From Escherichia coli (GTDB lineage: Bacteria > Pseudomonadota > Gammaproteobacteria > Enterobacterales > Enterobacteriaceae): a DNA stretch of 64,000 bases. The translations under genes were made by a program, and so were the position numbers. The DNA is taken from assembly GCF_036507355.1 (NCBI RefSeq), contig NZ_AP027877.1. One strand, written 5' to 3'. The notes below the pieces were generated by a model that did not search any database, was not told where the DNA came from, and saw nothing but the letters and a program-made list of their open reading frames with translations. Below, one piece after another: positions 21,998-46,930 of this stretch (positions are counted from its first letter, which is position 1; each line of letters opens with the position of its first letter).

Positions 21998-23422
21998 TTA
22001 CTGCATTAACAGGTAGATGGTGCTGTCGCCGCGCTGAATGTTCAGTGCCAGCACAGACGGTTTGCTGTCGAGAACTTTACGCAGTTCAGCGATGTTTTTC
22101 ACTGCCTGCTGGTTCGCGCCAATAATCACATCACCTTTCTTCAGGCCGATCTGCGCAGCCGGAGTGCCCGTTTTCACGTTGTTCACTACCACGCCCTGAT
22201 CTTTGCCTTTGTTGCTCATCTCAGCGCCTTCAATGCCGTTGAAGATGGAGCTGGAATCAACCTGATTCTGGCTGCTCTGCTGCAGTTCCAGGTTCACGTT
22301 AACCTGCTTACCGTCGCGCAGTAAGCCCAGGGTCAGTTTGCTGCCCACCGGCATAGTACCCACCTGAGCACGCAGTGCGGCAAAGCTGCTGATCGGCTTA
22401 CCGTTCAGTGAGGTGATCACGTCACCCGCTTTAATGCCCGCTTTTGCAGCGGAGGAATTAGGCAGAACCTGGCTTACGAAAGCACCGCGCTGGGCGTCAA
22501 CTTTCATCGCTTTCGCCAGTTCGGAGTTCAGCTCAGTCCCCATAATACCCAGCTCACCGCGTTTCACCTGGCCGTATTCCACCATCTGCGAGGTCAGGTT
22601 TTTCACCATGTTGCTCGGGATTGCAAAACCGATACCGATGTTGCCACCGTCCGGTGCGAGGATCGCGGTGTTGATACCGATCAGTTCGCCGTTCAGGTTA
22701 ACCAGCGCACCACCGGAGTTACCACGGTTGATCGCTGCATCGGTCTGGATGAAGTTTTCGTAGTTTTCGGCATTCAGGCCGCTACGCCCCAGCGCAGAGA
22801 CAATCCCGGAAGTTACCGTCTCGCCCAGACCAAACGGGTTACCAATCGCTACGGTGTAATCACCCACGCGCAGTGCATCAGAATCCGCCATCTTAATTGC
22901 GGTCAGGTTTTTCGGATTCTGGATTTGGATCAGCGCGATATCAGAGCGCGGATCTTTGCCAACCATCTTCGCGTCGAACTTACGACCATCGCTCAGCTGG
23001 ACTTTAATCACCGTCGCGTTATCAACAACGTGGTTGTTGGTGACGACATAGCCTTTATCGGCATCAATGATGACGCCGGAACCCAGCGCCATGAATTTCT
23101 GTTGCTGGCCGCCACCATTACCGCCCTGGCCACCCTGGCAGAACGGAGAGCTCTGGAACGGAGAACCTTCCTGGCAGAACGGAGAATCATCACCGAAGAA
23201 CTGCTGGAAATTACGCGGCATACGCGGCGTATTAACGGTTGTGCTACCTTCTACGTTAATGCTGACCACTGAAGGCATCACCTTTTCGAGCATCGGTGCA
23301 AGGCTTGGCATCTGCTGGGCTGTCGTTGCTGAAGAAGTCTCAGCCGCCGTTGCAGAGAGCGGAGATAACGCCAAACCTAAACTCAGAGCCAGTGCACTCA
23401 GTGCTAATGTGGTTTTTTTCAT
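21998..23422 (-). CDS. degP: Periplasmic serine endoprotease/chaperone DegP (HtrA)
   Basis: 474-aa ORF, signal peptide MKKTTLALSALALSLGLALSPLSATA, trypsin-like domain (GNSGGAL) + two PDZ domains. Confidence 0.95.
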   Translation of the reverse strand: MKKTTLALSALALSLGLALSPLSATAAETSSATTAQQMPSLAPMLEKVMPSVVSINVEGSTTVNTPRMPRNFQQFFGDDSPFCQEGSPFQSSPFCQGGQGGNGGGQQQKFMALGSGVIIDADKGYVVTNNHVVDNATVIKVQLSDGRKFDAKMVGKDPRSDIALIQIQNPKNLTAIKMADSDALRVGDYTVAIGNPFGLGETVTSGIVSALGRSGLNAENYENFIQTDAAINRGNSGGALVNLNGELIGINTAILAPDGGNIGIGFAIPSNMVKNLTSQMVEYGQVKRGELGIMGTELNSELAKAMKVDAQRGAFVSQVLPNSSAAKAGIKAGDVITSLNGKPISSFAALRAQVGTMPVGSKLTLGLLRDGKQVNVNLELQQSSQNQVDSSSIFNGIEGAEMSNKGKDQGVVVNNVKTGTPAAQIGLKKGDVIIGANQQAVKNIAELRKVLDSKPSVLALNIQRGDSTIYLLMQ

Positions 23423-23464
23423 GTATTTCAGTCTCGATTAACAGATAACGCAAAATTGCTGTGT

Positions 23465-44034: not shown

Positions 44035-44070
44035 TTACAGCCGTTCCATCACGTTTACCACAGGCGGGAA

Positions 44071-44997
44071 ATGCTCCCGCCTTATTTTTTGTTCAAAGAG
44101 ATGACAGACACACACTATATTGGCCGCTTCGCCCCCTCTCCTTCCGGCGAGCTTCATTTTGGTTCTCTGATTGCTGCGCTTGGCAGCTATTTGCAGGCTC
44201 GCGCCCGGCAAGGTCGCTGGCTGGTACGCATAGAAGATATCGACCCGCCTCGTGAAGTTCCCGGTGCCGCAGAAACTATCCTGCGCCAGCTGGAACATTA
44301 CGGTCTGCACTGGGACGGCGATGTTCTCTGGCAATCGCAACGTCACGATGCCTATCGTGAAGCACTCGCCTGGTTACATGAACAAGGACTAAGTTATTAC
44401 TGCACCTGCACGCGTGCGCGTATTCAAAGCATTGGCGGTATTTACGACGGTCATTGCCGGGTGTTGCATCATGGACCAGACAACGCCGCAGTGCGTATCC
44501 GCCAGCAGCATCCGGTCACGCAATTTACTGACCAGCTGCGCGGCATTATTCACGCCGACGAAAAACTGGCACGGGAAGATTTTATTATTCATCGCCGTGA
44601 TGGTTTGTTTGCCTATAACCTGGCGGTGGTGGTGGATGATCACTTCCAGGGCGTGAGCGAAATTGTCCGCGGGGCAGATTTGATCGAACCGACAGTGCGG
44701 CAAATCTCGCTGTACCAGCTTTTTGGCTGGAAAGTGCCAGATTACATTCATCTGCCGCTGGCGCTTAATCCACAAGGCGCTAAACTTTCCAAGCAGAATC
44801 ATGCGCCTGCGTTGCCGAAAGGTGATCCACGCCCGGTACTAATCGCGGCACTTCAATTTCTGGGGCAGCAGGCAGAAGCACACTGGCAGGATTTCAGCGT
44901 CGAGCAAATCCTTCAGTCAGCCGTCAAAAACTGGCGGCTTACCGCAGTGCCTGAGTCGGCAATTGTAAATTCAACATTCTCAAATGCGTCATGCTGA
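44071..44997 (+). CDS. gluQ: Glutamyl-Q tRNA(Asp) synthetase (start may be internal ATG at 44101)
   Basis: 308-aa ORF; class I aaRS HIGH-like motif [15 protein letters not shown]. Confidence 0.85.
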
Positions 44998-45056
44998 GCT
45001 ATGATTAGCCGCTATTTTTTTGTCCTGAATGATGTTTGACACTACCGAGGTGTACT

Positions 45057-46454
45057 ATTTTTACCCGAGTCGCTAATTTTTGCCGCAAGGTGCTAAGCCG
45101 CGAGGAAAGCGAGGCTGAACAGGCAGTCGCCCGTCCACAGGTGACGGTGATCCCGCGTGAGCAGCATGCTATTTCCCGCAAAGATATCAGTGAAAATGCC
45201 CTGAAGGTAATGTACAGGCTCAATAAAGCGGGATACGAAGCCTGGCTGGTTGGCGGCGGCGTGCGCGACCTGTTACTTGGCAAAAAGCCGAAAGACTTTG
45301 ACGTAACCACTAACGCCACGCCTGAGCAGGTGCGCAAACTGTTCCGTAACTGCCGCCTGGTGGGTCGCCGTTTCCGTCTGGCTCATGTGATGTTTGGCCC
45401 GGAGATTATCGAAGTTGCGACCTTCCGTGGACACCACGAAGGTAACGTCAGCGACCGCACGACCTCCCAACGCGGGCAAAACGGCATGTTGCTGCGCGAC
45501 AACATTTTCGGCTCCATCGAAGAAGACGCCCAGCGCCGCGATTTCACTATCAACAGCCTGTATTACAGCGTAGCGGATTTTACCGTCCGTGATTACGTTG
45601 GCGGTATGAAGGATCTGAAGGACGGCGTTATCCGTCTGATTGGTAACCCGGAAACGCGCTACCGTGAAGATCCGGTACGTATGCTGCGCGCAGTACGTTT
45701 TGCCGCCAAATTGGGTATGCGCATCAGCCCGGAAACCGCAGAACCGATCCCTCGCCTCGCTACCCTGCTGAACGATATCCCACCGGCACGCCTGTTTGAA
45801 GAATCGCTTAAACTGCTACAAGCGGGCTACGGTTACGAAACCTATAAGCTGCTGTGTGAATATCATCTGTTCCAGCCGCTGTTCCCGACCATTACCCGCT
45901 ACTTCACGGAAAATGGCGACAGCCCGATGGAGCGGATCATTGAACAGGTGCTGAAGAATACCGATACGCGTATCCATAACGATATGCGCGTGAACCCGGC
46001 GTTCCTGTTTGCCGCCATGTTCTGGTACCCACTGCTGGAGACGGCACAGAAGATCGCCCAGGAAAGCGGCCTGACCTATCACGACGCTTTCGCGCTGGCG
46101 ATGAACGACGTGCTGGACGAAGCCTGCCGTTCACTGGCAATCCCGAAACGTCTGACGACGTTAACCCGCGATATCTGGCAGTTGCAGTTGCGTATGTCCC
46201 GACGTCAGGGTAAACGTGCATGGAAACTGCTGGAGCATCCTAAGTTCCGTGCGGCTTATGACCTGTTGGCCTTGCGAGCTGAAGTTGAACGTAACGCTGA
46301 ACTGCAGCGTCTGGTGAAATGGTGGGGTGAGTTCCAGGTTTCCGCGCCACCAGACCAAAAAGGGATGCTCAACGAGCTGGATGAAGAACCGTCACCGCGT
46401 CGTCGTACTCGTCGTCCACGCAAACGCGCACCACGTCGTGAGGGTACCGCATGA
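45057..46454 (+). CDS. pcnB: Poly(A) polymerase I (non-canonical AUU start)
   Basis: ORF 45036..46454; established PAP I N-terminus begins [18 protein letters not shown] at ATT 45057, preceded by GAGG. Confidence 0.9.
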
Positions 46455-46930
46455 CAGTGGCGTATATTGCCATAGGCAGCAATCTGGCCTCTCCGCTGGA
46501 GCAGGTCAATGCTGCCCTGAAAGCATTAGGCGATATCCCTGAAAGCCACATTCTTGCCGTTTCTTCGTTTTACCGCACTCCACCGCTGGGGCCGCAAGAT
46601 CAACCCGATTACTTAAATGCAGCCGTAGCGCTGGAAACCTCTCTTGCCCCTGAAGAGCTACTCAATCACACTCAGCGTATTGAGTTACAACAAGGTCGCG
46701 TCCGTAAAGCGGAACGCTGGGGACCGCGCACGCTGGATCTCGACATCATGCTGTTTGGTAATGAAGTAATAAATACCGAACGCCTGACCGTTCCGCACTA
46801 CGATATGAAGAATCGTGGATTTATGCTGTGGCCGCTGTTTGAAATCGCGCCGGAGTTGGTGTTTCCTGATGGGGAGACGTTGCGTGAAATTTTACATGCA
46901 AGAAAATTTAGTAAATTAAACCAGTGGTAA
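46451..46930 (+). CDS. folK: 6-hydroxymethyl-7,8-dihydropterin pyrophosphokinase
   Basis: 159-aa [66 protein letters not shown]; overlaps pcnB stop by 4 nt. Confidence 0.95.

Follow-up and report, generated by a model that had tools for sequence, protein, structure and literature searches.

Where does translation of pcnB, the gene for poly(A) polymerase I (PAP I), begin in Escherichia coli, and is the start codon alone enough to account for the control of its translation? We addressed these questions in a 64,000-nucleotide stretch of E. coli DNA (hereafter the window; contig NZ_AP027877.1), in which the initial annotation, made from the sequence alone, had placed the start of pcnB at a non-canonical AUU codon. 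The coding sequence occupies positions 45057..46454 on the plus strand (465 codons plus stop), as assigned by protein identity, profile matches and mapping to RefSeq. All 465 of the 465 residues of its product are shared with MG1655 PAP I, NP_414685.4 (100% identity), and the product scores 997.1 bits against the NCBIfam equivalog NF008634 (cut-off 702), with residues 1-464 aligned to profile positions 1-468 of 469. The three PAP domains were found by Pfam at residues 62-193 (PF01743), 220-280 (PF12627) and 338-457 (PF12626), and the PolyA_pol head, the RNA-binding region and the arginine-rich C-terminus are all present. The PAP I structures 3AQK, 3AQL, 3AQM and 3AQN match residues 28-442, the solved chains beginning at residue 28 or 29.

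The gene lies in its orthologous position, in the order dksA-gluQ-pcnB-folK, which is the same in the more distant relatives L084 and L085. Its upstream neighbour gluQ (tRNA glutamyl-Q synthetase) is annotated at 44071..44997 and its downstream neighbour folK at 46451..46930, both on the plus strand, and the ATG of folK overlaps the pcnB stop by 4 nt. The start of gluQ itself differs by record, being the first ATG (44071; 927 nt, 308 aa) in MG1655 b0144 and the second ATG (44101; 897 nt, 298 aa) in PGAP. The best matches of the window are other E. coli strains, at 99.8%. The window comes from a strain other than K-12. Like the window, K-12 pcnB (b0143) has the ATT, the GAGGTG, the upstream TGA and the same gene order, and no difference is seen in the 60 nt that precede the start or in the 30 nt that follow it; the two differ from each other by 39 nt over 44057-46454 in the comparison with MG1655, all of them silent in pcnB.

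A direct read of positions 45036-45060 gives TTGACACTACCGAGGTGTACTATTT. The ATT initiation codon lies at 45057..45059 on the plus strand, a placement that draws on the sequence, the annotated start, conservation and the literature. It is preceded by the Shine-Dalgarno sequence GAGGTG (45047..45052, plus strand), assigned by duplex energy and conservation, which is the complement of CACCUC near the 3' end of 16S rRNA; the predicted anti-Shine-Dalgarno pairing is -7.2 kcal/mol. Its GAGG (45047-45050) is separated from the A of the ATT by 6 nt, so that a Shine-Dalgarno sequence 5-9 nt upstream and an AUU at the curated start, as expected of an AUU-started gene, are both found here. The initial annotation had noted only this GAGG, which is indeed present, but the full complementary stretch is the 6-nt GAGGTG. 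Judged by its predicted pairing, which is fairly good, this site shows no obvious weakness, although published work describes the ribosome-binding site as poor. Taken by itself, GAGG-N6-ATT carries no weight, as the window holds 4 matches where chance predicts 6.1; its significance comes from position, homology and conservation.

Walking upstream in frame from the ATT, the codons are ACT, TGT, AGG, CCG, CTA, ACA, TTG (45036), TGT and TGA (45030). The in-frame TGA at 45030..45032 (plus strand) closes the pcnB frame, and no in-frame ATG occurs between it and the ATT at 45057. The walk bears out the earlier claim that the TTG at 45036..45038 (plus strand) is the sole canonical in-frame alternative upstream; an in-frame ATG with a Shine-Dalgarno site, which would have spoken against the AUU, was looked for and is absent. 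The two ATGs at 45029 and 45032 are in a frame that differs from that of pcnB. They form an out-of-frame upstream ORF (ATGATG, 45029-45034), which overlaps the ATT and stops at a TAA at 45074-45076; this candidate was rejected, as it is without a Shine-Dalgarno sequence and its ATGs are missing in Citrobacter, Enterobacter and others.

The curated records agree with this start. RefSeq MG1655 b0143 (157729..159126, 465 aa) and the PGAP coding sequence WP_010723084.1 of strain PapM-32-1, which begins at locus position 1758, both start at the base that corresponds to window position 45057. The comparison with the curated annotation that had been suggested along with the AUU start thus gave an identical start base.

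An AUU start codon is decoded by initiator tRNA and yields methionine. Because initiator tRNA reads the AUU, residue 1 is Met and not the Ile (IFTRV) given in the initial annotation, which is hereby corrected; the curated 465-aa protein UniProt PCNB_ECOLI (P0ABF1) opens with MFTRV. PAP I carries an N-terminal leader or propeptide of 17 residues that is cleaved (PMC9764084), and according to the literature a poorly conserved, disordered stretch follows it. Since the leader is removed, N-terminal sequencing of the native enzyme alone cannot define the start codon.

The conservation of the start was assessed in a comparative set with one genome per species, in which the Enterobacteriaceae loci are the best 80 of 452 relatives. 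Among these 80 species, both the ATT at the start codon and the GAGGTG at -10..-5 are present without exception (80/80 each). Read from the ATT, the frame stays uninterrupted in each of the 79 complete orthologues within this set, and over codons 14-28 the variation among Enterobacteriaceae orthologues is mostly synonymous or conservative, which is evidence of translation. Across the E. coli population, 81 nt round the start are unchanged in 5,413 of 5,424 complete genomes, and an ATG-bearing query found an ATG at the pcnB start codon in 0/5,424. Of these 5,424 hits with the start region, three fall on plasmid-labelled records; 2/5,426 genomes gave no match.

Further afield, a 1.08-Mb genome with 62% protein identity (L083) keeps GAGGTG-N4-ATT with the same spacing and is annotated from the ATT, and L084 keeps the ATT and the GAGGTG while the nucleotides downstream differ. 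The gene calls of L084 (1501-2998; GCA_014218195.1) split pcnB into two ORFs (316 and 150 aa), owing either to a frameshift or to faulty assembly. In L085 and L086, both metagenome contigs from distant Gammaproteobacteria, the homologous N-terminal peptide opens at an ATC, upstream of which a canonical in-frame start is absent, so that translation there probably also begins at a non-AUG codon, ATC, as judged from the sequence. The PcnB N-terminal peptide (L085, 1114-1200; L086, 675-743) is translatable only from this ATC (or from a CTG in L085), and the gene callers began 29 and 23 codons past the opening of the frame, respectively. The basic amphipathic peptide at the N-terminus is conserved as protein, though encoded by different nucleotides, in L084, L085, L086, P0008, P0010, P0012, P0044 and others. 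Many still more distant homologues have a similar short basic amphipathic N-terminus after an ordinary ATG, which fits the survey of Hecht et al.

The nucleotides round the start are themselves unusually constant. We calculated the synonymous codon entropy in 9-codon sliding windows for 79 Enterobacteriaceae species, drawn from the best 80 of 452 relatives. Codons 1-9 have a mean of 0.049 bit, compared with a gene mean of 0.947 bit, and form the lowest of 345 such windows; the rare Arg codon CGA within them is present in 79/79 species of the same sample. Together with the alignment, the entropy delimits a near-invariant block at 45047..45083 (plus strand), which reads GAGGTG, 4 variable nt and then ATT TTT ACC CGA GTC GCT AAT TTT TGC CG. 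A second patch of low synonymous variation, with the next lowest mean entropy of about 0.29 bit, covers codons 36-50 (45162..45206, plus strand). In the same species, the lowest windows of the neighbouring genes are 0.885 bit in folK and 0.79 bit in gluQ, and the 5' ends of these two genes are unremarkable (1.16-1.28 bit). As the entropy falls so far below that of the neighbours, the block from GAGGTG to codon 9 is conserved as nucleotides. The 37-nt string is not kept outside the Enterobacteriaceae, as seen in L084.

A stable RNA structure does not explain this conservation. RNAfold and RNAalifold proposed a hairpin that would hide the Shine-Dalgarno sequence, pairing GGUG (45049-45052) with UACC (45062-45065) and placing the AUU in the loop, but this candidate is unsupported. 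It reaches no more than -4.7 kcal/mol, a stability equalled or bettered by 54 of 200 shuffled sequences; in a longer context another fold is preferred (z = +0.48), and the pairing is gone in L084. Covariation in the hairpin is impossible because the columns are invariant. No Rfam family matched the start region, even at E-values up to 1.

Both patches may instead reflect nucleotide-level selection within the Enterobacteriaceae that far exceeds what the protein or the genes on either side would call for. Tentatively, and with more doubt than confidence, we consider that 45047-45083, perhaps together with codons 36-50, could act in cis to set the level of PAP I synthesis, as an element not described before. 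Candidate roles would be a sequence context for AUU initiation, or a site of binding or cleavage by a trans-acting factor (an sRNA with Hfq, S1 or RNase E).

An exact-sequence look-up shows that the same E. coli protein exists in public databases with five N-termini. The 465-aa form starting at the ATT (UniProt PCNB_ECOLI), the 472-aa form starting at the TTG at 45036 and the 454-aa form starting at the GTG of codon 12 each occur on at least 1,000 contigs, while the 437-aa form (GTG, codon 29) is found on 10 contigs and the 414-aa form (ATG, codon 52) on 39. The initial annotation had warned that gene callers accepting only ATG will mis-start pcnB; this stands but is too narrow, as the 472-, 454- and 437-aa models in the databases mean that callers accepting GTG and TTG err as well.

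Each of the other N-termini corresponds to a rival reading of the start. The older 472-aa model, with the TTG at 45036 as the main start, can point to the only canonical in-frame start codon upstream and to its wide presence in the databases; moreover, the introduction of PMC3561954 names UUG, although the same paper is inconsistent and gives AUU in its discussion, and PMC9764084 gives a 473-aa protein. However, duplex prediction finds no Shine-Dalgarno pairing upstream of this TTG, and residues -7 to -1 are not conserved. Among the best 80 of 452 relatives, a TTG at -21 is present in just 26/80 species, an in-frame stop lies at or inside -21 in 5/80, and 43/80 have no ATG, GTG or TTG at all from the upstream stop to the ATT. 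The curated annotation and the later literature both use AUU, and we regard the TTG as a most improbable main start. In the same set, 2/80 have an ATG at -21, both being Salmonella enterica (subsp. arizonae and diarizonae). This in-frame ATG (L022, diarizonae, and L023, arizonae; 1480-1482), 21 nt before the conserved ATT and without a Shine-Dalgarno sequence, stands where E. coli has the TTG, and callers almost certainly pick it.

A start further downstream would turn the invariant block into an untranslated regulatory leader, with translation beginning at the GTG of codon 12 (45090..45092, plus strand; given in some annotations) or of codon 29 (45141..45143, plus strand; given in few). Gene callers do choose both GTGs (P0002 for codon 12), the GTG of codon 12 is present in 80/80 species and codon 29 is an ATG in 72/79, both counted within the best 80 of 452 relatives, the solved structures open close to codon 29, and an RNA element is a conceivable reason why codons 1-9 do not vary in nucleotide sequence. 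Owing to this invariance, conservation of residues 1-11 at the level of the family cannot tell a peptide from an RNA or DNA element, and the matter is decided by the distant homologues, the position of the Shine-Dalgarno sequence and the literature. All of these argue against a downstream start: the basic amphipathic peptide is conserved in distant homologues that use other nucleotides, the invariant GAGGTG is spaced correctly for the ATT, from which the frame is open throughout the orthologues, and PMC2939334 puts the start at AUU. In addition, no Shine-Dalgarno pairing is predicted in the 20 nt upstream of the GTG at 45090, and no obvious Shine-Dalgarno site is seen in the 20 nt upstream of that at 45141. 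A start at either GTG hence seems scarcely credible to us. In E. coli, codon 29 is a GTG and stands where the variable acidic linker meets the catalytic domain. The remaining reading is compatible with AUU as the main start and adds a shorter isoform, begun at the ATG of codon 52 (45210..45212, plus strand; 414-aa model) on transcripts from the sigma-S promoter pS1, which lies inside the 5' coding region. This ATG was proposed as a start by Liu and Parkinson (1989), as reported in PMC2939334; Nadratowska-Wesolowska et al. (2010; PMC2939334) found pS1 to be active in vitro and two bands in anti-PAP I western blots, the AAGG before the ATG has a weak predicted pairing of -3.9 kcal/mol, and the low-variation codons 36-50 lie just before it. 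Nevertheless, the same authors call the isoform speculative, pS1 needs unusual conditions, and the second band could equally be processed PAP I that has lost its leader (PMC9764084). Codon 52 is Leu in 7 of 10 representative species and differs from Leu only in E. coli, Citrobacter koseri and Atlantibacter, which means that an isoform of this kind lacks conservation; overall, we consider its existence unlikely. The AUU at 45057 remains the start codon that agrees with the anatomy of the site, the curated records and the conservation.

Two promoter-like sequences lie near the start. A consensus scan found a sigma-70-like match, TTCTCA-17-TATGAT (9/12), at the end of gluQ (44977..45005, plus strand), which is possibly the published major promoter pB, located upstream of the ATT (PMC2939334). 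The TTG at 45036 opens a TTGACA hexamer (45036-45041) that matches the -35 consensus perfectly and is possibly part of pS1, the sigma-S promoter reported within the 5' end of pcnB; among the best 80 of 452 relatives, this hexamer is confined to Escherichia, Citrobacter and a small number of other genera. No intrinsic terminator was found between gluQ and pcnB. Elsewhere in the window, Rfam matches above the gathering score are the CssrA sRNA (13560-13669), the t44 RNA (14508-14594) and the HtrA 5' UTR thermometer (23417-23462), all on the minus strand.

Initiation of pcnB at AUU, limiting PAP I, is attributed to Binns and Masters (2002), as cited by PMC2939334, PMC3561954, PMC5499595, bioRxiv 10.1101/063800, PMC4447247 and PMC9764084, and these citing papers support the claim of the initial annotation that weak AUU initiation limits the level of poly(A) polymerase. 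PMC2939334 gives the non-canonical AUU as the start, places a previously proposed promoter downstream of this codon and names translation as a point of control. On phylogenetic grounds, the homologues of many Proteobacteria may also use AUU (PMC3561954). Together with infC, pcnB is one of the only two confirmed AUU-started genes of E. coli (PMC5499595, bioRxiv 10.1101/063800, PMC4447247, PMC9410913), and in reporter assays near-cognate starts such as AUU reach 1-2% of AUG (Hecht et al., bioRxiv 10.1101/063800). Our literature search returned nothing relevant on retapamulin start-site profiling of pcnB.

These reports and the anatomy of the site suggest a mechanism in which the GAGGUG at 45047-45052 would position the 30S subunit and the AUU at 45057 would then be read by initiator tRNA, giving Met as the first residue. 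The third base of the AUU does not match the initiator anticodon, and IF3, which may act at pcnB by analogy with infC, would discriminate against such complexes; initiation is therefore expected to be inefficient, at about 1-2% of AUG if the reporter assays apply. The toxic PAP I would in this way be held to a few tens of molecules per cell.

The nearest parallel is infC, which encodes IF3 and in which, as in pcnB, an AUU start restrains a protein that is harmful in excess, although the two proteins are unrelated. To our knowledge, no feedback operates at pcnB. At infC the AUU closes a feedback loop, since the codon that starts IF3 synthesis is one that IF3 itself selects against (PMC5499595, PMC9410913), whereas the AUU of pcnB would act as a constitutive brake that may be linked to the level of IF3. 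A rare ATT start also lowers expression of ebpA of Enterococcus faecalis, where pipelines likewise chose another start (PMC4447247); ebpA differs in being an unrelated Gram-positive pilus gene whose mis-annotated start lies 120 bp downstream (PMC4447247).

Taken together, the region 45057-46454 is, with very high confidence, E. coli pcnB encoding PAP I, started at the AUU at 45057 behind GAGGUG, with the AUU limiting synthesis. This conclusion is supported by the anatomy, curated identity and conservation computed here and, as regards the use of AUU and the limit on expression, by the literature. As the AUU start has been in print since 2002 and the curated annotation already contains it, it is known, and the finding is correct but ordinary: the AUU is the accepted brake on an enzyme that is toxic when over-produced, and is not new. 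The practical lesson is one of annotation, in that one protein stands in the databases with five N-termini and automatic callers never propose the ATT. The conservation round the start is a lead rather than a finding, and one that might repay work, since so exceptional a constancy of nucleotides suggests that the start codon alone is not the full account of how translation of pcnB is controlled.
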